DNA of 57,851 nucleotides. Source: a virus (taxonomy: Duplodnaviria > Caudoviricetes). The stretch spans positions 1 to 57,851 of the IMG/VR virus record IMGVR_UViG_3300044568_003733; one strand, written 5' to 3'. The notes below the pieces were generated by a model. It was not told the DNA's origin, ran no database searches, and saw only the letters and a program-made list of their open reading frames with translations. Shown here piece after piece: positions 1-22,348 of this stretch. The translations under genes and the position numbers were made by a program. How positions within the stretch are numbered: position 1 is the first letter of the stretch; each line of letters begins with the position of its first letter.

Positions 1-3000
1 CCATGTTATGGCATCCGTACCTCAACAGATGCCATAACATGGACCACCCGCACCTCAAACTTTGGAAATACAATTATACGCTCAGTAGCCTATGGTAACA
101 GCCTTTGGGTAGCAGTTGGCTATGCAGGACAACTCCGTACCTCAACAGATGGCACAACTTGGACCACCCAAACCTCCAACTTTGGAAATACACATATAAA
201 CTCAATAGCCTACGGCAACAACCTTTGGGTAGCAGGTGGCTATGTAGGACAACTTCGTACCGCTGCTTCCTTATATCCAAACCTATCAACAGTAGCATCT
301 TCAACAGGAACAAATACAAGAGTATCTACTGATAGAATATCATGGACTACTATTAGTATTTTAAATCCCGTTGCTTATATAGATACCGACGTAAAATCAA
401 GCGGCATAGCAACAGCAGAACGATATAAAGCAATATCAAATATAAATGGAACTCTTCTTTATTCTGATAGAGAAACAGATCAATATAATCAATATAGAAA
501 TTTATATCAAGAAGTTGGAATTGCTTGGACCACCCAAACCTCCAACTTTGGTAATACACGGATACAGTCAGTATCTTACGGAAACAACCTATGGGTAGCA
601 GGCGGTTTATATGGTGTCCTCCGCACCTCAACCGATGCCATAACCTGGACTGCCCGTACATCCAACTTTGATAGTAATCACTGGATCCGCTCAGTAGCCT
701 ACGGAAACAACTTATGGGTAGCAGGTGCCTATAACGGCCAACTCCGCACCTCAACAGACGGCACAACATGGACCACCCGTACTTCCAACTTTGGTAATAC
801 ACAGATACGCTCAATAGCCTACGGTAACAACCTATGGGTAGCAGGCGGCTATACAGGACAAATCCGCACATCAACAGATGCCATAACCTGGACTACCCAA
901 ACCTCTAACTTTTTTACTCCCAATGAACCAAGAAATATAAACTCAGTAGCCTACGGAAACAACCTATGGGTAGCAGGCGGTGTATATGGTGTCATCAGAA
1001 CCTCAACAGATACTATAACATGGACCACCCAAACTTCAAACTTTGGAAGTACAGATATATTCTCAGTAGCCTACGGCAACAGCCTTTGGGTAGCAGGTGG
1101 GGCTACAGCCCAACTACGCACTTCAACCGATGCCGTAACTTGGACCACCAGTACTGGTGCTTCAAGTATAAACTCAGTAGCCTACGGCAACAACTTATGG
1201 GTAGCAGGTGGTGGTTCAGGCACCTTACGCACATCAACGGATGCTATAACTTGGACTACCCGTACTTCTAACTTTGGTTCTTCACCTATAAACTCAATAT
1301 ACTACGGCAACAATCTATGGGTAGCAGGTTCATATGGAGGCCAGATCCGCACCTCAACCGATGCTATAACTTGGACCACCCGTACCTCTAACTTTGGCAA
1401 CTCAACTATACTGTCAGTAGCCTACGGCAACAACTTATGGGTAGCAGGTGGGGGTGCAGGCCAGATCCGCACCTCAACAGATGCAATAACGTGGACTACC
1501 CGTACCTCAAACTTTGGAAGTACAGGTATATTCTCAGTAAGACACGGCAACAACCTGTGGGTAGCAGGCGGGGATGGAGGCCAACTCCGCACCTCAACAG
1601 ATGCAATAACTTGGACCACCCGCACCTCAAACTTTGGAGGTACACTGATACGCTCAATAGTTTATGACAACAGTATTTGGGTAGCAGGCGCAGATTCAGG
1701 CCAACTCCGCACATCAACGGATGCAATAACTTGGACCACCCGTACATCTAACTTTTCTAGCGATCAACCAAGAGTTATACGCCGAATAGCCTACGGTAAT
1801 AGCCTTTGGGTAGCAGTTGGTCTTTCAGGTCTACTCAGAACCTCAACAGATGGCATAACCTGGACTACCCAAACTTCCAACTTTGGAACTAGTACTATAA
1901 ACGGAATAGCCTATGGCAACAACTTGTGGTTAGCAGGGGGATTAACAGGACAACTCCGCACATCAACGGATGCTATAACTTGGACCACCCGTACTTCTAA
2001 CTTTGGTGTTTCACCTATAATTTCAGTAGCCTATGGTAACAACCTTTGGGTAGCAGTCGGCTATACAGCCCAGATCCGCACTTCAACAGATGCCATAACC
2101 TGGACTACCCGTACCTCTAACTTTGGAAATACACATATACACTCAGTAGCCTACGGTAATAGCCTATGGATAGCAGTTGGCGATACTGGCCAACTCCGCA
2201 CCTCAACAAATACACCACTTTATAACAATATAAAATCAATATCTACATTTGGAACTACAACAATTGGATTAATAGCAGATAATAATTTTGTTACTAGTAA
2301 TGATTTAATTTCATATGCCACGCCAAATTTACAATGGACCACCCAAACATCTAACTTTGGAACTTCAGATATACAGTCAGTAGCCTATGGCAACAGCCTT
2401 TGGGTAGCAGCTGGACATACAGGCCAACTACGCACCTCAACAGATGCCATAACCTGGACCACCCAAACCTCTAACTTTGGCAGCACAACTATACGCTCAG
2501 TAGACTACGGCAACAGTCTCTGGGTAGCAGTTGGATCTTCAGGCCAAATCCGCACCTCAACAGATGTCACAACTTGGACCACCCAAACCTCAAACTTTGG
2601 AGATACAACTATATGGTCAGTAGCCTACGGCAACAGCCTCTGGGTAGCAGGTGGCTATAATGGTAATCTCCGCACCTCAACAGACGGCACAACCTGGACC
2701 ACACAAACCTCAAACTTTGGAACTACACAGATACGCTCAGTAGCCTACGGCAACAACCTTTGGATAGCAGTTGGATTTGCAGGACAATTGCGCACCTCAA
2801 CAGATGCAGTCACATGGACTACCCAAACCTCAAACTTTGGAACTGAAATTATATTCTCAGTAGCCTACGGCAACAACCTTTGGGTAGCAGGTGCAAATAA
2901 TGGTAATCTCCGCACCTCAACAGACGGCACAACCTGGACCACCCGCACCTCCAACTTTGGTAGTACAGGTATAGGAGAAGTAGACTACGGCAACAATCTC

Positions 3001-4284
3001 TGGATAGCAAGCGGGCCTGCAGGCCAACTCCGTACCTCAACAGATGCAATAACTTGGACCACCCGCACCTCAAACTTTGGCAGCACAGCTATACGCTCAA
3101 TATCCTACAGCAACAACCTTTGGGTGGCGGGTGGAGATGCAGGCCAAATCCGAATTTCCTACACCCCATCAATACCACCAACCATTACATCAATAAACAC
3201 AAATATATTAGCATCAGATCAAGGAGTAATCTATCCATTTAATACATCAAATTCTACATATACCCCAATTAGAACAGGAATTTTAGGCGGTGTAGAAAAA
3301 GTAAGTTATTCTGATAATACTTATTCAATATATGTAAATGGAAAAACACCATATACATGGATAACACCAGTAAGTAACTTTGGAAATACAAATGTAATGG
3401 CAGTAGGCTATGGAAACAATCTTTGGGTAGTAGTTGGGACTGCAGGAACACTTCGCACTTCAACCGATACTATAACCTGGAACACGCAAACCTCTAACTT
3501 TGGAAGCACACAGATATTGGCAGTAGCCTATGGCAACAGCCTTTGGGTAGCAGGTGGCAATACAGGAACACTCCGTTCCTCAACTGATGCCGTAACTTGG
3601 ACCACTCGTACTTCCAACTTTGGAAACACACTTATATTTTCGATAGCCTATGGCAACAGCCTTTGGGTAGCGGGCGGAGAGTCAGGCCAACTTCGCACCT
3701 CAACAGATACTGTAACCTGGACCACCCGTACTTCTTCTGGCACTATGAACCAAATTATCCGCACAGCATCCTACAATAACAACATTTGGACAGTAGGTGG
3801 GGGTGGAGGACAACTTAATACTTCAACAGACGGCACAACCTGGACTGCCCGTACCTCCAACTTTGGTAATACGGCTATATTCTCAATAGCCTACGGTAAT
3901 AGCCTTTGGGTAGCATCATCTGGTGCAGGAACAGTCCGTTCCTCAACTGATACTATAACCTGGACCACCCGTGATTCCAACTTTGGAGGTGTAGTCTACG
4001 GCAACAATCTTTGGATAGCCTCCACCAATTTAAATAACATACGCACCTCAACAGACGGCACAACCTGGACTACCAGTAACTCAAACTTTGGAAATACAAC
4101 TATACGCCGAATAGCCTACGGTAATAGCCTTTGGGTAGCAGTTGGCTATGCAGGCACAATTCGTACCTCAAGAGTAAATGAAAACCTTGGCATGTATGTA
4201 TCAACTGATGGTGCTACATGGACTACTCAAGCATTGACATTACCAATATCTAATTCTAATTTAACTGATATTGAACTTGCATAA
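1..4284 (+). CDS. Giant Asp-box/BNR-repeat beta-propeller protein, probably a virion adhesin or appendage; 5'-truncated, >1427 aa
   Basis: Frame 1 translates without a stop from base 1 to TAA 4282-4284. The track's start at 1924 is just the first in-frame TTG. About 30 repeats of WTTRTSNFGxTxIxSVAYGNNLWVAGGxxGQLRTSTDAIT carry an Asp-box-like S-T-D-G/A-x-T-W motif. Confidence 0.85.
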   Translation, partial: PCYGIRTSTDAITWTTRTSNFGNTIIRSVAYGNSLWVAVGYAGQLRTSTDGTTWTTQTSNFGNTHINSIAYGNNLWVAGGYVGQLRTAASLYPNLSTVASSTGTNTRVSTDRISWTTISILNPVAYIDTDVKSSGIATAERYKAISNINGTLLYSDRETDQYNQYRNLYQEVGIAWTTQTSNFGNTRIQSVSYGNNLWVAGGLYGVLRTSTDAITWTARTSNFDSNHWIRSVAYGNNLWVAGAYNGQLRTSTDGTTWTTRTSNFGNTQIRSIAYGNNLWVAGGYTGQIRTSTDAITWTTQTSNFFTPNEPRNINSVAYGNNLWVAGGVYGVIRTSTDTITWTTQTSNFGSTDIFSVAYGNSLWVAGGATAQLRTSTDAVTWTTSTGASSINSVAYGNNLWVAGGGSGTLRTSTDAITWTTRTSNFGSSPINSIYYGNNLWVAGSYGGQIRTSTDAITWTTRTSNFGNSTILSVAYGNNLWVAGGGAGQIRTSTDAITWTTRTSNFGSTGIFSVRHGNNLWVAGGDGGQLRTSTDAITWTTRTSNFGGTLIRSIVYDNSIWVAGADSGQLRTSTDAITWTTRTSNFSSDQPRVIRRIAYGNSLWVAVGLSGLLRTSTDGITWTTQTSNFGTSTINGIAYGNNLWLAGGLTGQLRTSTDAITWTTRTSNFGVSPIISVAYGNNLWVAVGYTAQIRTSTDAITWTTRTSNFGNTHIHSVAYGNSLWIAVGDTGQLRTSTNTPLYNNIKSISTFGTTTIGLIADNNFVTSNDLISYATPNLQWTTQTSNFGTSDIQSVAYGNSLWVAAGHTGQLRTSTDAITWTTQTSNFGSTTIRSVDYGNSLWVAVGSSGQIRTSTDVTTWTTQTSNFGDTTIWSVAYGNSLWVAGGYNGNLRTSTDGTTWTTQTSNFGTTQIRSVAYGNNLWIAVGFAGQLRTSTDAVTWTTQTSNFGTEIIFSVAYGNNLWVAGANNGNLRTSTDGTTWTTRTSNFGSTGIGEVDYGNNLWIASGPAGQLRTSTDAITWTTRTSNFGSTAIRSISYSNNLWVAGGDAGQIRISYTPSIPPTITSINTNILASDQGVIYPFNTSNSTYTPIRTGILGGVEKVSYSDNTYSIYVNGKTPYTWITPVSNFGNTNVMAVGYGNNLWVVVGTAGTLRTSTDTITWNTQTSNFGSTQILAVAYGNSLWVAGGNTGTLRSSTDAVTWTTRTSNFGNTLIFSIAYGNSLWVAGGESGQLRTSTDTVTWTTRTSSGTMNQIIRTASYNNNIWTVGGGGGQLNTSTDGTTWTARTSNFGNTAIFSIAYGNSLWVASSGAGTVRSSTDTITWTTRDSNFGGVVYGNNLWIASTNLNNIRTSTDGTTWTTSNSNFGNTTIRRIAYGNSLWVAVGYAGTIRTSRVNENLGMYVSTDGATWTTQALTLPISNSNLTDIELA
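526..4170 (+). repeat. Coding tandem repeats of about 120 bp in three blocks: 14 units (~526-2210), 7 units (~2335-3160), 7 units (~3358-4170). Two more full units plus a partial one lie at 1-260.
   Basis: Manual count of YGN(N/S)LW-type blades in the translation; strong DNA-level similarity between units. Confidence 0.9.
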
Positions 4285-4301
4285 TTTGACAAAAATTACT
4301 A

Positions 4302-4331
4302 TTGCCAAATCCCTAGTAGATATGATAGAAT
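4302..4331 (+). promoter_or_regulatory. Sigma70/SigA-type promoter, probably leaderless
   Basis: TTGCCA-18 nt-TAGAAT with TGn extension; ATG 8 nt downstream and no SD. Confidence 0.55.
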
Positions 4332-4339
4332 GAATCTAT

Positions 4340-5164
4340 ATGTTAAATAAAAAACAATTTTACTTTATGGCGGGACTACCAAGATCTGGTAGTACTCTAA
4401 TATCATCTATATTAAATCAAAATCCTGATATTTATTCATCAGCAAATTCACCTATGTGTGGAATGATATTTAATTTAGAACGTAGTATTTTGGCATCAGA
4501 ACAGTACTCTGCATACCCAAAACCTGCAGTAATGCCAAATACAATTATGGGGGTATTAGAAGGATACTACTCTGATACAAATAAACCTATAGTTATTGAT
4601 AAATCAAGAGAATGGTCAATGCCTGAACATTTCGGGGTATTGCAAAGAAATCTTGGATATGAACCAAAAATAATACTACCAGTAAGAGGAATAACAGATA
4701 TCCTTGCATCATTTATAAGTCTAGTTAAAAAGAATCCAAATAAAAATAATTTTATTGATTCTGAAATACAAACAAGACAGGAATTTAATTTTTACCGTCC
4801 AGCAGATGATATTAGGTGTGATAGCTTAATGAGGCCAAAAGGTATTATTGATAACTGCTTATACGGTATAGCATTTGCGATGCATCCAGATAATAGAAAG
4901 TATTTCCATTTTGTAGAATACGATGATTTAATAGAAAATCCAGAAGAAGAAATTAACAAAATTTATGATTTTTACGGTATTGAAAGATTTACCCATGACT
5001 ATTCAAATATAGCAAACAATATTAAAGAAGATGATAATGTCTATGGACTTATAGGACAACATGATGTAAGATCTTCTATATCCCGTCGGAATATAAATAA
5101 ACAAGAGTTATTGTCTGAATATGTAATAAATAAATATACTGGTCTAGAATTTTGGAGAAAATAA
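4340..5164 (+). CDS. PAPS-dependent sulfotransferase
   Basis: 5'-PSB loop GLPRSGST, then IDKS, VR..DILASF and VEYDDL..P motifs. Confidence 0.85.
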   Translation: MLNKKQFYFMAGLPRSGSTLISSILNQNPDIYSSANSPMCGMIFNLERSILASEQYSAYPKPAVMPNTIMGVLEGYYSDTNKPIVIDKSREWSMPEHFGVLQRNLGYEPKIILPVRGITDILASFISLVKKNPNKNNFIDSEIQTRQEFNFYRPADDIRCDSLMRPKGIIDNCLYGIAFAMHPDNRKYFHFVEYDDLIENPEEEINKIYDFYGIERFTHDYSNIANNIKEDDNVYGLIGQHDVRSSISRRNINKQELLSEYVINKYTGLEFWRK

Positions 5165-5835
5165 TGAAGCCACATGTTAATGTTTTAATCGCCACCCCTG
5201 GTAGAAATATGGAAGCAGAATATGTAAAAAGTTTAATACAAACTATTTCATATCTAAATCAAGTAGGTATTTCATATATGTTCTTAAATGAATATTCATC
5301 TATGGTTAGTACTGCTAGAGAAGCAACAACAATGGGAGATCAATACCTAGATCCTTTTAATAATAGTCCTGCTCGTGGACAAGTAACATATGATAAAATT
5401 TTTTGGATTGATTCTGATATTGGATGGGAAATAACAGACTTTATGAAAATATATGAGTCTGATAAAAATATTGTTTCTGGTTTATATTTTAATGAAAAAA
5501 TGGTACCAATGTTTTCTGTAGCAGTAGAAGATGCGGCAACAGAAATTGACAGAATTTTAAAAAGTAATAAGGAAGAAGAAGTTTTTGCTGCTGGATTTGG
5601 TTTTATAGCAATGAAGCAAGGCGTATTTGAAAATATGAAAAGACCATGGTTTGAGTCAGTATTTCAAAAAATGACTTCAGAAGATGAGGAAAAAGAAATA
5701 TTTATTCCATACGGAGAAGATTTTTCCTGGTGCAAAAAAGCACAGCAAGCAGGATTTAAGGTGTACTTAGATCCTACAGTAAGTTTGTCGCATTATAAAA
5801 AAGTAAAGGTAAGGTTAGATAATTATGGCAAATAA
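5152..5835 (+). CDS. GT-A fold glycosyltransferase-like protein (paralog 1)
   Basis: VLIATP, WIDSDI (DxD), IVSGLY, GFGF, RPWF, GEDFSWC. Confidence 0.75.
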   Translation: MEKIMKPHVNVLIATPGRNMEAEYVKSLIQTISYLNQVGISYMFLNEYSSMVSTAREATTMGDQYLDPFNNSPARGQVTYDKIFWIDSDIGWEITDFMKIYESDKNIVSGLYFNEKMVPMFSVAVEDAATEIDRILKSNKEEEVFAAGFGFIAMKQGVFENMKRPWFESVFQKMTSEDEEKEIFIPYGEDFSWCKKAQQAGFKVYLDPTVSLSHYKKVKVRLDNYGK

Positions 5836-6529
5836 GCCACATTTTAATGTAGTAATAGCTACTCCAGGAAACGGATTCACTCCTGGCTATATGAGAAGTA
5901 TTCTTAAAACAACGTATATATTAAATCAAGAAAACCTATCTTGGAACTTTTTAAATCAAGGTGGATCTTTAGTTGCAATGGCCCGTGAATCTACAATTGG
6001 TGGATGGGATACAAATAATATAAAGATGACAGAGCCATGTAGTGGTGAATGGACTTATGACAAAATTATTTGGATTGATTCAGATATTGAGTGGGAACCA
6101 TCAGATTTTTTTGCATTATATAATTCTGAAAAAGATATTATTTCTGGATGCTATTTAATGGAAGATCGACACGTTCCTATTTATAATCAGCCTAGAGGTG
6201 GAATGATGCCAGAACAAATGATTCTTGATAATAAGGAGCCATTTAAAGTTGCTGGGGCTGGATTTGGGTTCCTAGCCGTTAAACAAGGGGTATTTGAAAA
6301 AATGCCAAGACCTTGGTTTGGCCCAGTAGCAATACCCAATACAGATGAAAACAAAGACACAAATCCTGAGTTTATACTTATTGGTGAAGATCTTTCTTGG
6401 TGCACAAAAGCCATTAATTCTGGTTTTGAAATTTGGGCGGATCCCAAAATTAGAGTAACTCATCAAAAAACATTTAAACTTCATTGGATGGATGTTTTAC
6501 AAAAAAATTATCCACAGGAAAATAAATAA
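5825..6529 (+). CDS. GT-A fold glycosyltransferase-like protein (paralog 2)
   Basis: Same motif series as the upstream gene: IATPG, WIDSDI, GFGF, RPWF, GEDLSWC. Confidence 0.75.
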   Translation: MANKPHFNVVIATPGNGFTPGYMRSILKTTYILNQENLSWNFLNQGGSLVAMARESTIGGWDTNNIKMTEPCSGEWTYDKIIWIDSDIEWEPSDFFALYNSEKDIISGCYLMEDRHVPIYNQPRGGMMPEQMILDNKEPFKVAGAGFGFLAVKQGVFEKMPRPWFGPVAIPNTDENKDTNPEFILIGEDLSWCTKAINSGFEIWADPKIRVTHQKTFKLHWMDVLQKNYPQENK

Positions 6530-7251
6530 TGAAATTACAATTTGAAGCATTTGATAAAGAAACAGAACTTTTGTTTGAAAGTCCAAAGCCAGCAGTTCAG
6601 TCTCTTCCACAATGGTATAAAGATATGCCAACAAGAATGGATGAAGAAAAATTAGACGGTTTATCAAAAGATGGGGTTGCAGTTAGTAACTTAACATTAA
6701 AGGGATGCTCTCCTTTTCTTGACGCTTTAAGTACAGGATACATATTTGAATTACCATTTGATATGGAGTTTAGAAAAAATGATAAAGGAATGATTAATGT
6801 TCGTTGGGCAACAAATATTAATCTTATAGGACAACACGGACCAGATCAAGCACCAGGATTACCAGGACCATTTGGTGGATCCCCAAGTCTTCTTAAGTGG
6901 AGACCAGGATGGAGAGTTATTACTCCAAAAGGCTACAGTTGTTTGTTTACCCATCCTATGAATAGGCACGATCTTCCATTTAGAACATTTTCTGGTGTTG
7001 TGGATACCGATATGTATAAGCTTGGTGTTGAGTTTCCATTTCAGTTATTGGATTCTTCAATTGATAAAGATGTTTTTATTCTTGAGAAGGGAACCCCCAT
7101 TTGTCAGGTTATTCCATTTAAGAGAGAAGATTGGAAGAGCGATGTTGTAAAATTTGATGAAGAAGAAAATCGTAAAAATGGTTTTTTATTAAAATCAAAA
7201 ATAGTTCGTTCGTACAAACAACAATTTTGGCAGAAAAAAACTTATAATTAG
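6529..7251 (+). CDS. Conserved phage hypothetical protein, possibly dUTPase-like beta fold
   Basis: Translationally coupled ORF; LKGCSPFLDA, TPKGYSCLF.HP, GVVDTD, KGTP..QVIPFKR. Confidence 0.6.
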   Translation: MKLQFEAFDKETELLFESPKPAVQSLPQWYKDMPTRMDEEKLDGLSKDGVAVSNLTLKGCSPFLDALSTGYIFELPFDMEFRKNDKGMINVRWATNINLIGQHGPDQAPGLPGPFGGSPSLLKWRPGWRVITPKGYSCLFTHPMNRHDLPFRTFSGVVDTDMYKLGVEFPFQLLDSSIDKDVFILEKGTPICQVIPFKREDWKSDVVKFDEEENRKNGFLLKSKIVRSYKQQFWQKKTYN

Positions 7252-7259
7252 GAGATAGC

Positions 7260-8234
7260 ATGGATTGGTTACAGCAGGTTCCAAAAAACAATATTGGGGT
7301 GGTAGAAGAATCTTTGCCTCCAATGGGCGGTACAGAAATATTAAAATCTGGACTATATAAATATACTAATATAGCGCAGCATGAAGATGTTCACCTTTTG
7401 CTATCTAATCCATATTTTAAAAATATAAAATATACAAAAAAGAATTTGCTATGGCAACATTTGGCTCATAGCGATGAATCATTAAAATTAGGATACACAG
7501 ATCCCTCATTTATGAATGCTATAAATTCATTTGTATACATCTCTCACTGGCAACATGAAAAGTATCGTTGGATATTTAAAATCCCACTTGAAAATGCATA
7601 TGTAATCAAGAATGCAATAGAACCAATTGAATTTAAGCCAAAGACTAAAGATGGCAAGATAAAATTAATTTATACCTCTGCCCCTTTTCGTGGACTAGAT
7701 ATGCTTTTGCCAGCATTTGAAATGCTAAATAGAGAAGATGTAGAGCTTGATATTTATTCATCAGCAAAAATGTATGGAACTGGATATGAAGCTCATACAA
7801 ACGGGGTGTACGAAGAACACTTTGAAATAGCTCGCAATATGAAGAATGTTAACTATATGGGATATGCTACAAATGATGTAATTAAAAAGGCTTTACAAGA
7901 AGCCCATATTTTTGCATATCCAAGTACATTTGAAGAGACTTGTTGTTTGGCAATGGTTGAAGCTGGAGCTGCAGGATGCCGCATGGTTACAACTAACCTT
8001 GGTGCACTATATGAAACGGGATCAGAATATGCAAGACTTATGCCAATGCAAGCGGTACCAGAAACATTTATTCCAGCATATGCAAAAATACTAAATGAAG
8101 AAATTGACAATTATTGGTCTATAGAAACACAAAGTAAATTACAAAAGCAATCAGATTTTTATAATGAAAATTACTCTTGGGATTTAAGGTCTAAAGAGTG
8201 GAATAGATTGTTTGAAAAAATTAGCTCCACTTAG
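7260..8234 (+). CDS. GT-B (GT4/Glycos_transf_1-like) glycosyltransferase
   Basis: MGGTE, YTSAPFRGL, YPSTFEETCCLAMVEA (E-x7-E); AGGAG SD. Confidence 0.85.
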   Translation: MDWLQQVPKNNIGVVEESLPPMGGTEILKSGLYKYTNIAQHEDVHLLLSNPYFKNIKYTKKNLLWQHLAHSDESLKLGYTDPSFMNAINSFVYISHWQHEKYRWIFKIPLENAYVIKNAIEPIEFKPKTKDGKIKLIYTSAPFRGLDMLLPAFEMLNREDVELDIYSSAKMYGTGYEAHTNGVYEEHFEIARNMKNVNYMGYATNDVIKKALQEAHIFAYPSTFEETCCLAMVEAGAAGCRMVTTNLGALYETGSEYARLMPMQAVPETFIPAYAKILNEEIDNYWSIETQSKLQKQSDFYNENYSWDLRSKEWNRLFEKISST

Positions 8235-8877
8235 CATTATATTTTACTTGATCAGAAGCAACAATGCTATCAAAAGATTCGGTAGAGCTAGAATCAATTA
8301 AATAATCTCCCCATAGGTATTCTGAACGAGAATGTCCCAATACAGGTTCTGCCCTACGATAAAAATCATTATCACCAAACCATATTTGGAATTGCTCATC
8401 AGCACGTAGGCTAGAGGATGCTGAAACTAATAGCATAGCCCCATCAGAGATATTTATAACCTCTGATTCACCCTTAGAAAATTCATCGTATGCTTCTTTA
8501 ATCACGAATGGATCAAATTCAAAAACGCCATTTGTTAAAATAACAGCATCTGCTCCGTTTGCTACGGCATACTCAAAGCCAGTATTCCAATAACGATAAA
8601 TATTTATATCATTAAAATCTTCTAGATGGACTACGCCATCATGCTCTGTATAACCAGCAACTTTATTTACAAAAATAACTCTACTAGAAAAATTTGGTCC
8701 TGTTTGACCAGCATATGGATGAGAAACATTTTCTGTCTCTAACTCTTTTGTTTCTTGATTAAATATCTTTTTTTCGTAGGTTTCTGGGGCAATATATCCG
8801 CCAGACAATTTATTAATAAATTCAGTAAGATCTACAGTATTATTTAGCACTGGAACGACTATCCATGTATTTAACAT
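8221..8877 (-). CDS. Divergent GT2-like protein, the only confident minus-strand gene
   Basis: WIVVPV, NIYRYWNTG, IWFGDND; AAGGAG SD and a TGATATAAT promoter upstream on the minus strand. Confidence 0.6.
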   Translation of the reverse strand: MLNTWIVVPVLNNTVDLTEFINKLSGGYIAPETYEKKIFNQETKELETENVSHPYAGQTGPNFSSRVIFVNKVAGYTEHDGVVHLEDFNDINIYRYWNTGFEYAVANGADAVILTNGVFEFDPFVIKEAYDEFSKGESEVINISDGAMLLVSASSSLRADEQFQIWFGDNDFYRRAEPVLGHSRSEYLWGDYLIDSSSTESFDSIVASDQVKYNAKWS

Positions 8878-8910
8878 ATTTCTCCTTATATTATCTTATG
8901 GTATTCAAAT

Positions 8911-8919
8911 ATTATATCA
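8911..8919 (-). promoter_or_regulatory. Extended -10 promoter for 8877..8221
   Basis: Reverse complement reads TGATATAAT. Confidence 0.55.
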
Positions 8920-9014
8920 TAGAGGATTTACTAAATAAACTTCACTAGCTCCGACCTTTTTTATCTGTCGGCTGGACCTTTACAAAACCCCACCTAATAG
9001 TATATACTTGAGAT

Positions 9015-10025
9015 ATGAATCTTGTACAAAAAGCGGTTACAAATGGCGGTAAATTAGTCCCTCTAGTTATTTCTAAAGGATTAACAAGTGGAACGGGATT
9101 AATGAACCCCTCCGTATTTATAGATGATGACGGGGACATATTAGTTAATCTTCGTCATGTGAATTACACCCTATATCACTCTGAAAATAGTCAAATGTTT
9201 CCATCTATATGGGGACCCCTATCTTATTTGCATCCAGAAAAAGATCAAAATCTAAGAACAACTAATTATATATGTAGGCTGGATAAAGATCTTGTTATGA
9301 CAGATTATTCTGTTATTGATACAAGTCTTTTAGATGTCCCGCCACTCTGGGAATTTGTTGGTCTTGAAGATGCCAGACTTGTTCAATGGGACGGCATATA
9401 CTATTGTATTGGCGTAAGAAGAGATACAACAAAAAATGGCGTAGGTAGAATGGAATTATCTAAAATAGAACTAGACAAAACAAATTGGTCTGCAAAAGAA
9501 GTGTCACGTATTAGGATACCTGCACCTGGAAATGATAGTTCATATTGTGAAAAAAATTGGTATCCAATACTAGATAAACCCTATCACTTTGTTAAATGGA
9601 CTTCTCCAGCAGAAATTGTAAGAACTTATCCAGATCTTCCCGCCAGATGTGATCAAGTGTCTCTTACTGAGAATATAAAAGTTCCTGCTGATCAAAGAGG
9701 CGGAAGCCAACTAATTCGCTGGAATAGTCTATATCTATCTATAACCCATGAAGTAAACCTATTTAATAATTACCTTAGTCAAAAAGATGGTGTATACCGA
9801 CATAGACTATGTGTCTGGGATGACGATTTAAATTTAATTGGAATTTCTCCAGAACCATTTTCATTTTTAGATGCACGTATAGAATTTGCTGCAGGAGCAG
9901 CAGTATACAATAATGATTTGCTGATATCTTTTGGTCTGCAAGATAATTGTGCGTTTGTTATTAAAGTTCCTGAGATAGTAGTAGAAGACATGATAGGGGA
10001 GGCATTACTAAATGAAATCAATTGA
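9015..10025 (+). CDS. GH130/GH43-like five-bladed propeller glycosidase or phosphorylase
   Basis: MNPS, GLEDARL, EKNWYP, RGGS, IEFAAG, SFGLQD; TATACT lies 6 nt before the ATG. Confidence 0.65.
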   Translation: MNLVQKAVTNGGKLVPLVISKGLTSGTGLMNPSVFIDDDGDILVNLRHVNYTLYHSENSQMFPSIWGPLSYLHPEKDQNLRTTNYICRLDKDLVMTDYSVIDTSLLDVPPLWEFVGLEDARLVQWDGIYYCIGVRRDTTKNGVGRMELSKIELDKTNWSAKEVSRIRIPAPGNDSSYCEKNWYPILDKPYHFVKWTSPAEIVRTYPDLPARCDQVSLTENIKVPADQRGGSQLIRWNSLYLSITHEVNLFNNYLSQKDGVYRHRLCVWDDDLNLIGISPEPFSFLDARIEFAAGAAVYNNDLLISFGLQDNCAFVIKVPEIVVEDMIGEALLNEIN

Positions 10026-10584
10026 AAAATTAATTGAAGATGCATCTCATGATATGTTTAATCCAATATTAAATTTTGAGATTGCTAATAAATATGAGGA
10101 ATTAAATCAAACAGCATCTGCTGTATCTTTTTATTTAAGAGCGGCAGAATATGGATATAATACTAATCCAGAAATTGTTTATACATCATTATTAAAAATG
10201 GCACATTGTTTTAATGATCAGGCTGGAAGAGAAAATAGTGTAACTCATGCTTTGCTTCAAGCTATTCAATATATGCCTAATAGACCTGAAGGATATTTTT
10301 TGCTTTCCCGTTTTTATGAGAGAGATCAAAAGTGGCAACAATGCTACACTTTCGCCGAAATAGGGTTGTTATATTCAAAAACAATTAATCAATTGCCAGC
10401 ATCAGTAGATTATCCAGGAGAGTATGGCCTACTATTTGAAAAAGCTGTAAGTGCATGGTGGATCGGCAAAAAGGAAGAATCTTTAAATATATTTTTAGAA
10501 TTATTAAAACAAGACATGTTAGATATTTATCGTAATGCAATAATATATAATTTGAAAAGAATTGATCCAAATGCTGCTATTTGA
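10012..10584 (+). CDS. TPR-like helical repeat protein
   Basis: FEIANKY...AVSFYLRA and AIQYMPNRPEGYFLLSRFY patterns. Confidence 0.7.
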   Translation: MKSIEKLIEDASHDMFNPILNFEIANKYEELNQTASAVSFYLRAAEYGYNTNPEIVYTSLLKMAHCFNDQAGRENSVTHALLQAIQYMPNRPEGYFLLSRFYERDQKWQQCYTFAEIGLLYSKTINQLPASVDYPGEYGLLFEKAVSAWWIGKKEESLNIFLELLKQDMLDIYRNAIIYNLKRIDPNAAI

Positions 10585-11242
10585 TATTGGCGCAAATAGA
10601 GGAGATGCAGTAGTTGCAGGATTGAATAAAGGATTTGATAAGATTATTGCTTTAGAGCCCGCCCCCAAAATGTTTTATATGCTTTACAATAATTTTAAAA
10701 ACGACAAAAGAGTTATTCCACTTAAGTATGCTGTATCTGATTCTAATGACGAAAAAATTGAATTCTATGAATGTGTAGAAGATGGTCTTTCTACAATTGA
10801 AAAATCTTGGCTAACTGGAGAAGGTGCTATTTATAATGGCAAACAATTTAAAACTATTAAAGCTATTACTTGTACGATAGATTATCTTGTTGAAAAATAC
10901 GGCATTCCAGACTTAGTTAAAATAGATGTAGAGGGAGCAGAATCTCAAGTATTTGGAGGAATGACTTGCAAGCCAAAACAGTTATGTTTTGAATGGAGTC
11001 TATTTACCCTAGATCAGCATCTAGAGCAATTAAAGCGTCTTAGAGATGTTAATGGATACACAGAATTTGCGTTACAATATATTACAGATCATTTAGTAGA
11101 ACCTACAGTTTACCAATCAATGTCTATGATAGACTCTCTTCCTAAGTGGATTGAGGATACCAAAGATGAGTGGGAAAACGGCGGGTGGCTAGAATATGGG
11201 CTCAGACAAACTACAGACGTGGGAATGATTTGGGTAAAATGA
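10571..11242 (+). CDS. FkbM-family SAM-dependent methyltransferase
   Basis: FDIGANRG, ALEP, KIDVEGAE; start taken at the ATG of MLLFD. Confidence 0.85.
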   Translation: MLLFDIGANRGDAVVAGLNKGFDKIIALEPAPKMFYMLYNNFKNDKRVIPLKYAVSDSNDEKIEFYECVEDGLSTIEKSWLTGEGAIYNGKQFKTIKAITCTIDYLVEKYGIPDLVKIDVEGAESQVFGGMTCKPKQLCFEWSLFTLDQHLEQLKRLRDVNGYTEFALQYITDHLVEPTVYQSMSMIDSLPKWIEDTKDEWENGGWLEYGLRQTTDVGMIWVK

Positions 11243-11370
11243 TATATTTAAACACTAAGATTAATCTAAAGGATGGCTTAATATTTAGCCTTTTGCAAAA
11301 GGCTTATAGTACCGAGAATGATATAATATAAAAATGAGTAATACTACTGATAAAAAAGGAGATAATTAAA

Positions 11371-11754
11371 ATGGCACACTTTGCAGAAATCGACGAGAAC
11401 AATATTGTTACTCGTGTATTAGTAGTAGATAACGCAAATGAAGACAATGGGCAAGAATTTCTTGCAGAGACTTTAGGTCTAGGCGGAACTTGGATTAAAA
11501 CTTCATACAACACTTCAGGTGGCGTACACATAAATGGCGGAACACCATTAAGAAAAAATTATGCTGGAATTGGATATTCATATGATGCAGAAAGAGATGC
11601 GTTTATCCCGCCGAAACCTTATAATTCATGGTTATTAAATGACGAAACATGTCTTTGGAGCGCCCCAACACCAATGCCTGTAGAAGAAGGCAAAATTTTT
11701 AAATGGGTTGAAGAAGATTTAAACTGGCAAGAAGTAGAAATGGCACAGGAGTAA
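11371..11754 (+). CDS. Conserved phage protein of the MAHFAE type, usually accompanying glycine-rich fibre genes
   Basis: WIKTSYN, RKNYAGIGYSYD, FIPPKPY.SW; AAGGAG SD; TGATATAAT at 11319-11327. Confidence 0.7.
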   Translation: MAHFAEIDENNIVTRVLVVDNANEDNGQEFLAETLGLGGTWIKTSYNTSGGVHINGGTPLRKNYAGIGYSYDAERDAFIPPKPYNSWLLNDETCLWSAPTPMPVEEGKIFKWVEEDLNWQEVEMAQE

Positions 11755-11821
11755 TTTAAATTAATATAGGCGGATCTAGAGTAGTAATAATTAGATATCA
11801 AATATAGAAGTTAGGAATTAA

Positions 11822-12895
11822 ATGATATTTCATGTGGTAAGCCTACCTCACACTCAAACAACAGATGAGTATTCTAGTTGTGCCTTTACATCTAAAATAA
11901 TTGGTTTTTGTAAAATGATGAAGTCATTGGGACACACAATATATTTATATGCTGGTGAAGAAAATAAAGCTACATGTGATGAATTAATTACATGTATTAC
12001 TGAAGAGCAAAGAAAAGAAGCAGTAGGAGATAATCATTACACCACCGCCTCATTTGACACTAATTTACCACATTGGCAAATATTTAATAATAATGTAATT
12101 AATGAAATTAAAAAACGGGCAGGACAAAAGGACTTCCTCTGTTTTATAGGCGGAACATCTCATAAGCCAATTGCAGATGCTCTACCAGAATTTATGTCAG
12201 TAGAATTTGGTATAGGTTATGGAGCCACATTTGCTAAATATAGAGTTTGGGAATCATATGCTTGGATGCATTCAAATTATACTGGGTATAAAGATCCAAC
12301 AACAGTAGATGGATTATTTTACGATGAAGTAATTCCAGGATACTTTGATCCTACCGAATTTGCATTGCAAGAAGATAAAGAAGATTATTATTTATATCTG
12401 GGCAGACTAATAGATCGTAAAGGATATAATATAGCAGTAGAAGTTTGTAAGAAATTAAATAAAAGATTAATTATTGCTGGTCCTGGAACCCCGCCAGAAT
12501 ACGGTGAATATGTTGGAGTAATTGGTCCAGAAGAAAGAAAGAAATTAATAGGTGGGGCAATTGCATTATTTGCACCTACTCTTTATTTAGAACCATTTGG
12601 TAATATAGTTCCAGAAGCACATCTTTGCGGCACCCCAACAATAACTACAGACTGGGGAGCATTTACAGAAACAAATATTAATGGAGTAACAGGATATAGA
12701 TGTAGATCATTTCAAGAGTTTTGTGATGCTACAGAAAAGGTAAAATATTTAAATCCAGCACAAATATGGCGGAGGGCAGTGGACACTTACTCCCTTGAAG
12801 TAACCGCTCAAAAATATGATAAATACTTTAATAAATTACTTACTTTATGGGATGATGGCTGGTATAGTTATAAACCTGAAAGTGGTATAATTTAA
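11822..12895 (+). CDS. GT-B (GT4-like) glycosyltransferase
   Basis: [20 protein letters not shown] (E-x7-E), [13 protein letters not shown]. Confidence 0.85.
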
Positions 12896-12897
12896 AA

Positions 12898-14367
12898 ATG
12901 ACCACAGCTAAAGGCTTTCGCTATCCAGTATATTCAGACACTCCAGATGTCCCAAGAGATTTGGAATATTTAGCTGAAGATGTCGATACTTATTTAACAG
13001 CACATCCAGGACCAACTGGCCCATCAGGCCCATCAGGCCCATCAGGTCCATCAGGTCCATCAGGTCCATCAGGTGTTTCAGGCCCATCAGGTCCGTCAGG
13101 TCCGTCAGGTGCAACAGGTGCTACTGGTCCCACAGGACCAACTGGCGCAACTGGTCCGTCAGGTCCATCAGGAGCAACTGGAGCACAAGGAGCGGGAGTA
13201 ACAATACTTGGTAGCTATGCTACATTAGGCGCATTACAAACAGCACATCCTACAGGAGATCTTGGAGATGGATATGTTGTTGGTCCAGACTTATATGTTT
13301 GGGATGGAGATGAATGGTTAAATGTTGGTCCATTACAAGGTCCATCAGGTCCGTCAGGTCCATCAGGAGCATCAGGTCCATCAGGCCCAAGCGGCCCAAG
13401 TGGACCAAGCGGATCATCAGGGCCAACAGGGCCTGCACCAGCATTTTCAATAACATCAGATACTCCGCCATCTTCTCCAGTTACAGGACAAGCATGGTTT
13501 AATTCTACAAATGGAACACAATATACATATTATGATTCATATTGGGTAGAGGTTGGACAATCTTTAATTGGACCAACAGGTGCAACAGGACCTAGCGGAC
13601 CATCAGGACCATCAGGTGCTTCAGGTCCATCAGGACCAACTGGTGCAAATAGCACAGTATCAGGTCCATCAGGACCAAGTGGACCATCAGGCCCATCAGG
13701 CCCAAGTGGACCATCAGGCCCAAGTGGACCAAGTGGATCATCAGGATATACTCCAACTGGCTGGACAGCAATAATTACAAATCAAGCTGTAACATCTGGA
13801 ACTACGGTCACACTATCTGGACTTGGAACGTATAATAGACTTAAAATAATTTGGCATAGACAAGAAAGTAGTGGTGGCACACTTGCTTCTCCATCAGATA
13901 ATATAGATCATTTTTTAGTAGGATCTGTGAATGGTGGAGGATCAGGAAATAGTAAATTTGGATATAGCCAAGTAGAATTTATTGGATATTCATTAAGTTC
14001 ATTTTATGGAACTGGCGGAACTGGCGGAACTGGTTTGTCTGGATATGAATCAGCTGCGTATGGAGCAAATAATTCAGACCCTGGATTATTTATAGTTCCT
14101 TCAGGTCCTTCAGGAGGATCTATAGAAATTTTTGACAACTTATCTTCTACTGCAAAATCATACAATTTAATAGCAAATGGCCGACAAAGTATATCTAGCA
14201 CAGCATATCCAAAAATTAAATTTGTAACTGGAATGTGGGATAAGGCAGATCCTATTAGCTCAATTACTTTTGAATTACTTTATGGAAGCAATGGACAGTT
14301 TGGTAGAGTTATAGGCGGATCCGTTCAATTAGCTACATATTTTACAATACTAGGGAGTACACTATGA
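12898..14367 (+). CDS. Collagen-like fibre protein with three Gly-Pro-Ser-rich blocks
   Basis: G-X-Y runs at about 13009-13194, 13339-13437 and 13570-13746; LYVWDG and GQAWFNS..G..Y.YYD..WV junction motifs. Confidence 0.85.
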
Positions 14368-14606
14368 TAGATGTAACAGAAATAAATATTTCTACTGGAG
14401 AAGTTACTGAAAGAGAATATACTCAAGAAGAAATAGATAAAAGAATAGAACTTGAGTCTAATCCTCCACAAAAAATTATTGACATAAGATCTCAAGATCA
14501 ATTTTTAGAAAATGAAGAAATTATTGCATTAAAACAATCTGCTATAGATAAATTAAAGGCATTGGGTTTAACAGAAGAAGAAGCTAAAGCATTGGCAGGT
14601 ATATAA
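14364..14606 (+). CDS. Small fibre-associated protein, putative assembly chaperone
   Basis: [12 protein letters not shown]...[12 protein letters not shown]; ATGA overlap with the collagen gene. Confidence 0.55.
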
Positions 14607-14607
14607 C

Positions 14608-15156
14608 GTGCCAATAGATTTTCCAAATTCTCCAACTTTAAATGATGTTCACACAGTAGGAAGTAATTCCTGGAAATGGGATGCAACATCTTGGAATCTT
14701 GTAAGAAGTATTGGCCCATCTGGTCCTACTGGAGCAACAGGGCCTACAGGGCCAACTGGACCTAGCGGAGCAACTGGACCATCTGGAGCAACTGGTCCTA
14801 CTGGAGTAACAGGACCAAGCGGTGCGGCATCAGTATATGCTATAAATACTCAAACAGCATCTTATACTGCAGTATATTCAGATTCTTCAGCAATAGTAAG
14901 AATGAATGTTGGATCTTCAAATACATTTAGTATTCCTGTATCAACAAGCCCTACCGACTTTGAAATAGGATCATCAATAACAGTTTGGCAAATGGGTTCT
15001 GGTCAAACAACTATTCAAGCCTCAAATTCTGGAACTACAACAATACAATCAACAGGCGCATCTGCTGCCGCTCCAAAATTAAGAACTCAATATAGTTCAG
15101 CCGTAATAACTAAAGTAGCGGCAAATTTATGGTATGTGGCTGGAGATGTGGTTTGA
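14608..15156 (+). CDS. Short collagen-like virion protein
   Basis: IDFPNSPT N-terminus, G-X-Y block at ~14713-14823, C-terminal LRTQYSSA...W..AGD. Confidence 0.75.
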
Positions 15157-16044
15157 TTGCGTCATCTAATAGGAATATTTTCTTCTGAAATATCAAAGAG
15201 AACATTTGTAAGTGGCGGAACATTATCTTCTGATTCAACATATTATTATAGAACATTTACTGGTACAGATAATTTAATAATAACTGGACCAAGTATCTCT
15301 GTTGAATATTTAGTAATTGCAGGTGGAGGTAGTGGTGGTTGGGGTGGAGGCGGTGGAGGTGCAGGTGGAGTCAGATCTTCATCAGCAACATTAACTGCTG
15401 GCTTGTATCCTGCAACAGTTGGTGCAGGCGGAGCTTATTATATAACTGGAACAAACCCATCATCATTTAATTCATTTGAGTCTGCAGGCGGAGGAGTAGG
15501 GTCAACAAACAGTTTTGGAGCAGGAGCAAATAATGGAGGTTCAGGCGGCGGAGCAAGTGGTACTGGTGGGGCTTCCATAGCTGCAGGTTTTGGAAATACT
15601 CCAGCAACATCCCCTTCTCAAGGAAATAATGGAGGACCTGGTTCTGTCGGACACGGCGGTGGTGGTGGTGCAGGGGCATCTGGTGGAGCAGCTAGTGGAA
15701 ATTATGGTGGCTCTGGAGGAAATGGAACCAATTCTTATTCATCTTGGGCTTCAGCAACATCTACTGGAGTTAGTGGATATTATGCAGGAGGAGGTGGCGG
15801 TGGAAGCGTTGAAGTTGCTTATCAAGCTACTGGAGGTTTAGGCGGTGGTGGCTCAGGTGGATATATTTATAATCAAGATACTCAGCCATATAACGATTTA
15901 AATTTAGGAGCAACAAATTCTGGATCTGGTGGCGGTGGTGGAGGAAACGGAGTTGTTGGATCGGGATACAATCAGGCATATCCTGGAAACGGCGGTTCTG
16001 GTATAGTTATAGTTAGATACTTAAAATCAGCAGTAGGAGGATAA
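15157..16044 (+). CDS. Glycine-rich virion fibre protein
   Basis: VEYLVIAGGG...YYAGGGGG...GGSGIVIVRY. Confidence 0.75.
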   Translation: MRHLIGIFSSEISKRTFVSGGTLSSDSTYYYRTFTGTDNLIITGPSISVEYLVIAGGGSGGWGGGGGGAGGVRSSSATLTAGLYPATVGAGGAYYITGTNPSSFNSFESAGGGVGSTNSFGAGANNGGSGGGASGTGGASIAAGFGNTPATSPSQGNNGGPGSVGHGGGGGAGASGGAASGNYGGSGGNGTNSYSSWASATSTGVSGYYAGGGGGGSVEVAYQATGGLGGGGSGGYIYNQDTQPYNDLNLGATNSGSGGGGGGNGVVGSGYNQAYPGNGGSGIVIVRYLKSAVGG

Positions 16045-21295: not shown

Positions 21296-22348
21296 ATGAG
21301 TAATGAACTATTAGAAAAATCAGTAGCCGCTAATACTTCCGTAACCGCTAATATGTCTGGGTCTGCAGTAGCAACCACAGGCGTACACATCGGTTCCGAA
21401 GGTGAGGGTGGATTACTGAATCCAGAGCAATCAGCTCGATTCTTAGATTATATGTTCGACGCAACCGTAATTGGTAAAGTTGCACGTACAGTAAGAATGA
21501 AGTCTGATACAACTGAAATTGATCGTATGTCCGTAGGCGAAAAGCTTATGAAACTTGCGACAGAAGCAGATGATACTTCAGCAAATAGCGCAGTATCTTT
21601 CTCAAAAATTTCTTTGACAACAAAGAAGTTACGCCTAGATTGGGAACTATCAACAGAGTCTCTAGAAGACAACATTGAGGGTCCAGATCTAGAAGACCAC
21701 ATTGCACGTATGATGGCAACACAAGCAGGAAATGATATTGAGGATGTAGTTCTTAACGGAAATACAGCTTTAACATCAGATGCTTTGTACAAGTCATTTG
21801 ACGGTGTAGTAAAGAAGGCAAAGACATACGGTCATGTTGTTGATGCTGGTGGAGCTGCTGTTTCTCGTGCTGTATTTAACAGCGCATTAAAGGCACTTCC
21901 ACGTAAGTACAAGCAACGCCGTTCAGATCTTCGCTTCCTAGCAGGATCAAACTTAATTCAGGACTTCCTATATGCTAACAGCATTGGAACAAACCAGACA
22001 ATTCCACAAGATATTGCTTCAAGCATTATCCGTGGGCAAGAGGTTCAACCACTAGGTGGACCTGCAGGATATGTGGCACCATTCGCATTCGGTATTCCGA
22101 TTGTTGAAGTTCCACTTCTTCCAGAGGCACAAGATGGTGACTATTCAGGAGAGACTGGTAATCACGGAGATATCCACTTGACATTCCCAAATAACGTAGT
22201 TATTGGTATCAAGCGTGATGTAACTGTTTACCGATTCTTCTGGCCACGTAAGGACTCTATTGAATACACAATGTATACTCGTGTAGGCGTTCAAATCGAA
22301 CAAGCTGATGCTTGGGTTGTAGTAAAGAACGTTAAGGTTGCTTCATAA
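21296..22348 (+). CDS. Major capsid protein (HK97 fold)
   Basis: GGLLNPEQ, LEDNIEG, GIPIVEVP; high-expression codon usage, terminator downstream, synteny. Confidence 0.9.
   Translation: MSNELLEKSVAANTSVTANMSGSAVATTGVHIGSEGEGGLLNPEQSARFLDYMFDATVIGKVARTVRMKSDTTEIDRMSVGEKLMKLATEADDTSANSAVSFSKISLTTKKLRLDWELSTESLEDNIEGPDLEDHIARMMATQAGNDIEDVVLNGNTALTSDALYKSFDGVVKKAKTYGHVVDAGGAAVSRAVFNSALKALPRKYKQRRSDLRFLAGSNLIQDFLYANSIGTNQTIPQDIASSIIRGQEVQPLGGPAGYVAPFAFGIPIVEVPLLPEAQDGDYSGETGNHGDIHLTFPNNVVIGIKRDVTVYRFFWPRKDSIEYTMYTRVGVQIEQADAWVVVKNVKVAS

Follow-up and report, generated by a model that had tools for sequence, protein, structure and literature searches.

What does a virus gain from a protein in which a unit of 40 residues recurs 30 times, and how does such a protein change? 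The question is raised by an open reading frame (ORF 1..4284, plus strand) that encodes 1427 amino acids at the beginning of the IMG/VR virus record IMGVR_UViG_3300044568_003733 (Duplodnaviria; Caudoviricetes). The window, by which we mean the whole stretch of DNA that was analysed, is this entire linear record of 57,851 bp, whose completeness is estimated at 48%. No stop codon precedes base 1; the gene is therefore cut at its 5' end by the end of the contig, and its start lies beyond it. On balance, we think it probable that the gene encodes a virion-surface, fibre-associated adhesin, in which at least five Asp-box-like seven-bladed propellers are chained by conserved linkers.

A profile hidden Markov model (HMM) built from the repeats detects 30 strong blades of 40 residues, with scores of 44-83 bits. 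When the translation is split at an invariant tryptophan, the blades fall into a cut run (a fragment plus two blades) followed by runs of 14, 7 and 7, and the HMM agrees; weak remnants (<4 bits) were detected by it in two linkers only. Tandem Repeats Finder reports a period of 120 nt at 14-261, 524-3152 (21.8 copies) and 3376-3734. A preliminary description of this DNA had reported complete blocks of 14, 7 and 7 as well as longer loops exactly seven blades apart in the 14-block, and both are borne out, the loops lying in blade 4 (aa 297-340, 44 residues) and blade 11 (aa 578-620, 43 residues). Three points of that description needed correction: part of the protein is missing, the 14-block is preceded by a partial propeller, the fifth (aa 1-93), and the segments between blocks are conserved elements rather than plain spacers. 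The propellers are labelled a to e, and the linkers X, Y and Z, in Table 1.

The blades are not young copies, since the mean nucleotide identity of blade pairs is 71% (range 53-89%) and the global proportion of synonymous differences (pS) is 0.445, that of non-synonymous differences (pN) being 0.231. Duplication of whole propellers with blade positions kept was considered and rejected: blades at the same position are 65.6% identical compared with 64.9% for other pairs, a difference reached in 155 of 1000 permutations. The sole hint of duplication at the level of the propeller is that blade 4 has a matching long loop in both b and c.

The fold was modelled with AlphaFold2 in two pieces, aa 95-790 (model 1) and aa 741-1427 (model 2), from alignments of 33 and 34 sequences. 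The mean predicted local distance difference test (pLDDT) score is 80.0 for model 1 and 84.4 for model 2, and the propeller parts are mostly above 85. Propeller b (model 1 residues 81-361) aligns with the seven-bladed 7big_A (VIA Z 33.2, root-mean-square deviation 2.1 A, 270 residues aligned), propeller c (model 1 residues 358-645) with the seven-bladed 4yvd (Z 31.9, 2.4 A, 274 residues) and propeller d (model 2 residues 36-316) with 2z2n_A (Z 33.1, 2.1 A, 278 residues). Over the three rings (aa 175-455, 452-739 and 776-1056) Z is thus 31.9-33.2, with deviations of 2.1-2.4 A and 270-278 residues aligned. In these models two seven-bladed propellers that abut make up the 14-block, and a third corresponds to the next block. 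The final block, too, is modelled with seven blades at high confidence: propeller e consists of seven A-B-C-D strand sets (pLDDT about 77-96), its ring closure is without a single-domain alignment row, and its region is spanned only by double-propeller chains among the listed alignments (2ymu_B, range 45..651). The earlier prediction of at least four seven-bladed propellers is therefore upheld, three rings by structure alignment and one by its strand sets, with partial propeller a in addition. Double seven-bladed propellers are also the best Foldseek matches (top 2ymu_A, E 4e-19); the structural matches, at 5-16% identity, establish the fold and nothing beyond it.

Within each repeat the order of elements given by DSSP is strand D (W-T-T-x), D-A loop (T-S-N-F-G-x-T-x), strand A (I-x-S-V-A-Y-G), strand B (L-W-V-A-G-G), a tight B-C turn (x-x-G), strand C (Q-L-R-T-S) and an Asp-box-like C-D hairpin. 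Every block opens with a lone D strand and closes after a C strand, so that each ring can close like Velcro. The canonical Asp-box is a motif of eight residues, S-x-D-x-G-x-T-W. That of the blades, S-T-D-(A/G/T)-(I/T/V)-T-W, has seven, and is thus a shortened version, one residue short of the canonical form. Its position between strands C and D in every regular blade (S-T-D-x-x-T-W by DSSP) follows the placement rule for Asp-boxes in PMC2716378.

Variation within this scaffold is sharply localised. Across the 30 blades the scaffold residues W, S, N, F, Y, N and W have column entropies of 0-0.22 bits, and the x positions of FG-x-T-x-I-x-S reach 2.33, 3.65 and 2.77 bits and those of GG-x-x-G 3.26 and 2.68 bits, in keeping with the nearly invariant framework and about five free positions per blade that had been noted earlier. 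The five most variable columns (16, 32, 18, 33 and 10) all map to the D-A loop, to the first part of strand A or to the B-C turn; the probability that all five would fall by chance in top-half elements, which hold 17 of the 40 columns, is 0.009. The next most variable columns, 42 and 43, are part of the Asp-box and admit few kinds of residue. A four-strand meander places its D-A and B-C connections together on one face, and those joining A to B and C to D on the opposite one. Judged from this strand topology, and not from measured distances, each modelled propeller would display about 35 variable residues on one face around the central channel. The constant scaffold with a variable face proposed in the preliminary description is supported in this topological sense, all five most variable columns being on the D-A/B-C side. 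The arrangement agrees with that described by Quistgaard & Thirup 2009 (PMC2716378), in which Asp-boxes are located between strands 3 and 4, on a conserved bottom face, and a variable top face carries function.

The faces are diverse in their composition, with 76 distinct five-residue signatures among 98 canonical blades, and the residues pooled from the variable columns are rich in N, T, S, Y, R and Q. The preliminary description had also called for substitution rates to be compared site by site across blades. At columns 16, 18, 32 and 33, pN is 0.61-0.72, which is 1.4-1.6 times the global pS; the excess is there, but it comes from saturated paralogues and is suggestive only.

The number and order of the blades rest on one metagenome assembly, and the 14-block, or the blade order of this repetitive region in general, might be an artefact. 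We regard this as quite improbable. The contig does end inside the array, and the contigs of four other runs are independent but short (pieces of about 200-770 bp), none spanning the array; two minor joints in them skip from 243 to 1110 in one run and from 913 to 2422 in another, with sides of only 30-34 nt. Every piece from the four runs nevertheless matches with no or few differences (zero in three runs, and six in a single contig from the fourth). The mean difference between blades is about 26% of nucleotides and the closest pair is 89% identical, a divergence that short reads can resolve; moreover, the reading frame is intact, the blocks are exact multiples of seven, and separately assembled relatives show the same linker order. 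A back-joint from 243 to 13 with 9 extra letters (240 nt, two blades) is found in contigs of all four runs and indicates a near-identical two-blade unit just upstream of the window start, which is probably why the contig ends there. In several runs the summed contig depth at 148-294 and 2647-2940 exceeds that of adjacent bins by a factor of two to four, which is compatible with further near-identical blades in another part of the gene or in related phages that occur together with this one.

Homologues of the protein are abundant. A word-indexed search gave 2804 proteins at E <= 0.001 among 8000 candidates scored, many of them multi-propeller giants. Among 120 homologues listed, blade runs of at least six comprise 45 of seven, clearly the commonest length, 19 of six, 3 of eight and 2 of nine, as counted with the window blade HMM, which misses many divergent blades in homologues. 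A syntenic homologue is present in eight IMG/VR loci that represent few alleles: L002 to L005 are identical, L006 is cut at its 5' end and has the same linkers, L007 equals L008, and L009 is distinct. A scan of metagenome contigs for further alleles matched 59 stretches, none of them a relative. The full-length form has 1731 residues if the first start codon listed is used, or about 1720 if the first ATG is, and is laid out as five seven-blade blocks separated by the elements N, W, X, Y, Z and T. Aligned to it, the window protein reads cut end, X, 14 blades, Y, 7 blades, Z, 7 blades, T, so that after linker X it has 14 blades where L002 has 7, i.e. an extra seven-blade unit. The start of the L002 homologue (L002:7817-7970) encodes a stretch of about 20 residues of moderate hydrophobicity (Kyte-Doolittle 1.6 for the first 19 of them) and then a degenerate blade; the reading frame of the homologue overlaps with the last part of an upstream gene for a fibre-like protein of 750 residues.

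The arrays differ among these related phages, as would be expected from the preliminary description. For the five genes that follow the propeller gene, identity between the window and L002, L006, L007 and L009 is 94.3-97.9%, whereas the propeller gene itself is only 59.2-67.3% identical. It is by far the fastest-changing gene among near-identical phages, which makes it probably a host-binding adhesin. Divergence in the flanks is low (pS 0.13-0.30, pN 0.013-0.026), and that of the linkers between the window and its relatives is similar in range (pS 0.03-0.30); position-matched propellers have a pS of 0.33-0.52, close to the level between paralogous blades, and a pN of 0.16-0.22. There is no one-to-one orthology of blades, as those of the window have no consistent best partner in the relatives. 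The comparison of L002 with L007 is instructive, since the two are 95% identical overall and 59 of their 87 amino acid differences are in propeller 3, which differs at 16.7% of nucleotides compared with 0.9% and 2.2% on its two sides. The differences in this propeller include 46 synonymous and 59 non-synonymous codon changes, and thus indicate a swapped module rather than targeted mutation. In L009 the last block (L009:1677-2360) has five strong blades instead of seven, and the first two, which adjoin, share 96.7% of their nucleotides; either a variant with five or six blades is real or the assembly has collapsed. In the sequences compared, the linkers keep their places, and exchange, duplication or loss affects the propellers and blades.

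The preliminary description had gone further and proposed an adhesin that can be reprogrammed by recombination, conceptually like variable receptors of the leucine-rich repeat (LRR) type. Under such a reading, a diversity-generating retroelement (DGR), an invertible shufflon or cassette copying in the style of variable lymphocyte receptors (VLR) would rewrite the variable codons. Some features are of the kind that programmed diversification would leave: variation is confined to about five codons per blade, local pS at columns 16, 32 and 33 is 0.17-0.27 compared with 0.445 overall, the third base varying little, and Mtd_N, a domain known from a DGR target, is present in some relatives. The machinery and its traces were not found in the records searched, however. 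RVT_1 is absent from the window and from the records of three relatives, which are 49-81% complete, all of these records being incomplete. A-rich codons of the scaffold are conserved (AAC in 28 of 28 cases, ATA in 26 of 29), and column 33 retains its A at the third codon position. Neither a second blade-like locus nor silent cassettes were found in the window, where a search of the whole record returned only the gene itself, and there is no recombinase among the PHROG matches of the window. A DGR or other hypermutation was rejected on the absence of RVT_1 from these incomplete records, the conserved A-rich codons and the module-type difference between L002 and L007. We therefore consider programmed rewriting extremely unlikely; the VLR-like part of the earlier proposal is not supported, and neither is reprogramming of a DGR-like kind. 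The process seen in these sequences is ordinary mosaic exchange and blade turnover between phage lineages.

The linkers deserve attention in their own right. Their identity to L002 is 83% for X, 81% for Y, 73% for Z and 90% for the tail T, compared with 60-76% for the propellers; among the relatives identity ranges over 79-81% for Y, 88-90% for T, and from 73% (L002) to 93% (L009) for Z. When aligned with hhalign, the first half of X matches a two-blade profile over strands B-C-Asp-box-D (probability 59%, E 9e-5), Y matches the blade profile at 76%, part of this match being the flanking canonical strand, T matches it over the Asp-box at 78%, and Z does so at 0.1%. Word-based searches found no relatives of linker Z, and an exhaustive profile search gave 8 weak, multi-stretch matches.

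The protein may be organised otherwise than as a simple chain: N, W, X, Y, Z and T together would form a degenerate seven-bladed hub, with the regular propellers plugged into its loops and host binding still the function. The window would then have a double plug-in after X, two propellers in one socket, and the satellites would have been swapped, duplicated or trimmed between near-identical phages. We hold this arrangement to be possible but doubtful. The stronger conservation of the linkers (73-93%) and the blade-like character of the first half of X, of Y and of T would agree with it, as would their combined length, since the six linkers of L002 sum to about 335 residues when counted from coordinates, roughly one propeller's worth. 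In addition, each regular propeller begins and ends within a single blade, its two termini being neighbours, which is a requirement for an inserted domain. In contrast, the linkers are poorly predicted in both models (pLDDT about 30-37 for X, about 31-42 for Y and 38-69 for T), even in model 2 where Y, Z and T are modelled together, and only Z reaches 55-75. Z has four strands in model 2 (E329-331, 336-341, 357-364 and 367-373) but is without similarity to a blade. With such low values the models give a hub no confident support, although they come from a protein modelled in two pieces with shallow alignments at the linkers, and the N and W parts are absent from the window. If the arrangement were true, propellers would themselves be set into a propeller, and we have found no description of such a domain-insertion architecture serving host recognition.

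As to function, the chain of propellers is probably an adhesin, a role suggested by the gene context and by the domains with which propellers are combined in relatives. In L002 the two genes immediately preceding the homologue match PHROG families of tail fibres and virion structural proteins. Fibre-like genes are thus upstream of the propeller gene in L002 and downstream in the window, and this location, together with the hypervariability, is that of a receptor-binding protein. Relatives fuse propellers to Mtd_N, collagen and tail-collar modules; Mtd_N is recorded in the precomputed annotation of 13 of the 120 homologues listed, and was confirmed in 7 of 15 that were scanned. In phage DSL-LC01 a single propeller gene is located between collagen-like genes. 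BFVD structure matches include proteins named tail fibre, baseplate wedge initiator, BNR repeat protein, collagen-repeat protein and intramolecular-chaperone protein.

The gene is nevertheless located upstream of the portal and capsid genes and not after the tape-measure gene, the N-terminus of the homologue is short and moderately hydrophobic, and one of the upstream L002 proteins also matches a head-decoration PHROG. The protein might accordingly be on the virion but off the tail, as a head fibre or decoration, or might not be a virion protein at all but be released at lysis to bind host or environmental glycans. This we consider improbable, given that the neighbours with named matches are mostly annotated as tail fibres and that Mtd_N, collagen and tail-collar fusions occur in relatives.

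Several observations weigh against a fibre-associated adhesin made of seven-bladed rings. No N-terminal attachment or trimerising domain was found: the N-terminus is missing from the window, and the syntenic homologue of L002 (1731 residues) has about 50 residues before its first propeller, with no Mtd_N, collar or collagen anchor, more distant homologues being those that carry Mtd_N or collagen. There is no named family for the window protein in Pfam, NCBIfam or PHROGs. The five strong blades of L009 mean either that seven is not absolute or that the assembly collapsed, the blade order of the window rests on one assembly, and the pN/pS values above 1 at four columns come from comparisons of saturated paralogues and are no more than suggestive of positive selection. 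The best Pfam match of the window protein is Kelch_6 (24.5 bits, below the cut-off of 25.3), with no BNR, BNR_2 or PSII_BNR match; PHROGs gave only small families of unknown function and NCBIfam nothing meaningful. A few of the 120 homologues listed have PF14870, PF02012 or PF13088 in the precomputed annotation. When the sequences of solved structures were searched, designed WD40-like proteins came first (Ika8, 6.8e-7), and a literature search returned general papers on Asp-boxes and phage receptor-binding proteins but no study of these phage propellers.

The propellers could also be enzymes, glycoside hydrolases or lyases that degrade a host surface polymer in the manner of the GH74 tandem propellers or phage endosialidases. 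Asp-box propellers are mostly glycosidases according to PMC2716378, GH74 xyloglucanases are among the Foldseek matches, and the seven-bladed lyase 2z2n tops the structure alignments. However, the blades here are regular and near-consensus, conserved acidic residues specific to a blade are not apparent, the residues of the face are the least conserved ones, and matches to 2z2n and WD40 proteins at 5-16% identity reflect only a common fold. An enzymatic role is thus very unlikely. If the propellers are an adhesin instead, their variable faces would bind host-surface structures, most likely glycans, and several different propellers on one chain might raise avidity or allow more than one specificity. 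New faces would be supplied, in an arms race with the host, by recombination between the many similar 120-nt units and by recombination with other phages.

How does such a protein compare with known systems? The Ycf48/HCF136-type propellers (PDB 2xbg, 5ojp and 5oj5; Pfam PSII_BNR, DUF6242) have the same seven blades of about 40 residues with an Asp-box-like C-D hairpin, homologues of the window protein are labelled "photosystem II stability/assembly factor-like", and relatives match DUF6242. However, the propeller profile matches Ycf48 chains at E 0.04, which is not significant, and the window protein passes no Pfam threshold; it has at least five propellers per chain, is encoded in a phage fibre region and has no link to photosynthesis. 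The GH74 xyloglucanases/OXG-RCBH and 2ymu ("highly repetitive propeller") share the arrangement of fourteen consecutive blades as two seven-bladed rings, and 2ymu_A aligns over 526 residues of the window model, at 6-10% identity across two aligners. GH74 proteins are irregular enzymes with a catalytic cleft, and 2ymu is a WD40 protein. To our knowledge, none of them is a phage protein and none has more than two rings.

Among phages, a propeller on the adsorption device with proposed binding of host sugars is described, in PMC4901313, for Staphylococcus aureus phi11 Gp45 (five blades), PRD1 P2 and PhiKZ gp131C (seven blades, PDB 4GBF). These proteins have one propeller per chain on a trimeric stem, whereas the window protein chains at least five near-consensus propellers; no sequence relation between them and the window protein was found, and its syntenic homologue has no stem domain. 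The lamprey VLR (built of LRR) and Mtd of the Bordetella phage, a DGR target, offer a conceptual likeness, in that a fixed or repeated scaffold presents a few variable contact residues per unit. Each of them uses a dedicated diversification machine, cassette copying in the former and a reverse transcriptase in the latter. No such machine was found here, and the variation of the window protein lies between phage lineages rather than within one genome. What is left of the phrase "reprogrammable like VLRs" is thus the mosaic evolution usual for phage host-recognition genes, here in an uncommon format of chained propellers.

The remainder of the window provides some indication of the virus and its host. 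PHROG matches reveal a siphovirus layout of portal, protease, capsid protein, tape-measure and minor tail proteins followed by replication genes; no terminase large subunit was recognised in the window, and no Rfam families or tRNAs were found in it. The tape-measure protein (2287 residues, window 27179-34042) implies a very long tail. The capsid protein (window 21296-22348) is 57% identical to counterparts in Streptomyces phages of roughly 130 kb, which are high in G+C, whereas the window genome is about 35% G+C. In a phage database the best match of the propeller protein (39% identity) is in an Actinomycetia phage genome assembled from lake water, for which PMC10611076 gives a predicted actinobacterial host. 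The 24 public runs listed as containing some of bases 1-4400 are all metagenomes, of which 23 are labelled as lake water, and at least half of the sampled words of these bases are present in 7 of the 24. By sequence resemblance, the source appears to be an uncultured lake-water siphovirus with head genes like those of actinobacterial phages; that its host may be a low-G+C freshwater actinobacterium is speculation. The propeller gene has a G+C content of 45-46%, compared with 32-41% elsewhere in the window, and its GC skew is negative. The raised G+C probably results from a repeat rich in Thr, Ser, Gly, Ala and Trp, although a foreign origin would fit too.

Directly downstream of the propeller gene is an island of glycan-modification genes (Table 1), the first five of which are 94-98% identical in related phages. 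For its three proteins of 227-240 residues, Atlas gives a lead to GT2-like clusters, but only 14-20% of the cluster members carry that family. The island may modify glycans of the host surface or may add glycans to proteins of the virion; Thr and Ser are very abundant in the propeller protein.

Table 1. Parts of the propeller ORF (residues numbered as in its translation) and neighbouring features of the window.
Feature	Position in window	Strand	Details
Propeller a, partial, blade fragment and two full blades	1..279	+	aa 1-93; HMM blades aa 14-53 (81 bits) and 54-90 (75 bits)
Linker X	262..525	+	aa 88-175; first half a degenerate blade with Asp-box-like motif
Propeller b, seven blades, long loop in blade 4	526..1371	+	aa 176-457; AlphaFold2 model 1 and structure alignment
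Propeller c, seven blades, long loop in blade 4	1372..2220	+	aa 458-740; abuts b without linker
Linker Y, degenerate blade, about one blade long	2206..2334	+	aa 736-778; weak HMM remnant aa 748-762
Propeller d, seven blades	2335..3174	+	aa 779-1058
Linker Z, four-strand beta element without blade similarity	3157..3357	+	aa 1053-1119
Propeller e, seven blades (44-79 bits)	3358..4185	+	aa 1120-1395; blade 6 short (35 aa), blade 4 atypical
C-terminal tail T	4171..4284	+	aa 1391-1427; one more Asp-box-like hairpin, then stop codon
Glycan-modification island	4340-12895		directly downstream of propeller gene
Sulfotransferase	in island 4340-12895		Pfam Sulfotransfer_3/_1
Three proteins of 227-240 aa, function unknown	in island 4340-12895		phrog_1574 twice, phrog_7084
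Two group-1 glycosyltransferases and one FkbM-type methyltransferase	in island 4340-12895		
Two collagen-like tail-fibre genes	12898-15156		
Gly_rich_2 protein and 620-aa protein with Laminin_G_3 (ConA-like lectin) domain	12898-17906		before portal gene

If the protein does bind the host, it would represent a way of changing phage specificity that is unlike that of trimeric fibre tips: a monomer-like chain of rigid rings, each with 35 free residues on one face, in which new faces would arise from the swapping or reshuffling of 120-nt units. The family to which it belongs is large, as the number of homologues indicates, but almost wholly unstudied, and its members are often mislabelled as photosystem II assembly factors, as in the GenBank record of phage DSL-LC01. 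Propellers like these, close to a consensus and with a defined face of variable residues, could, in addition, be natural templates for engineered binders.

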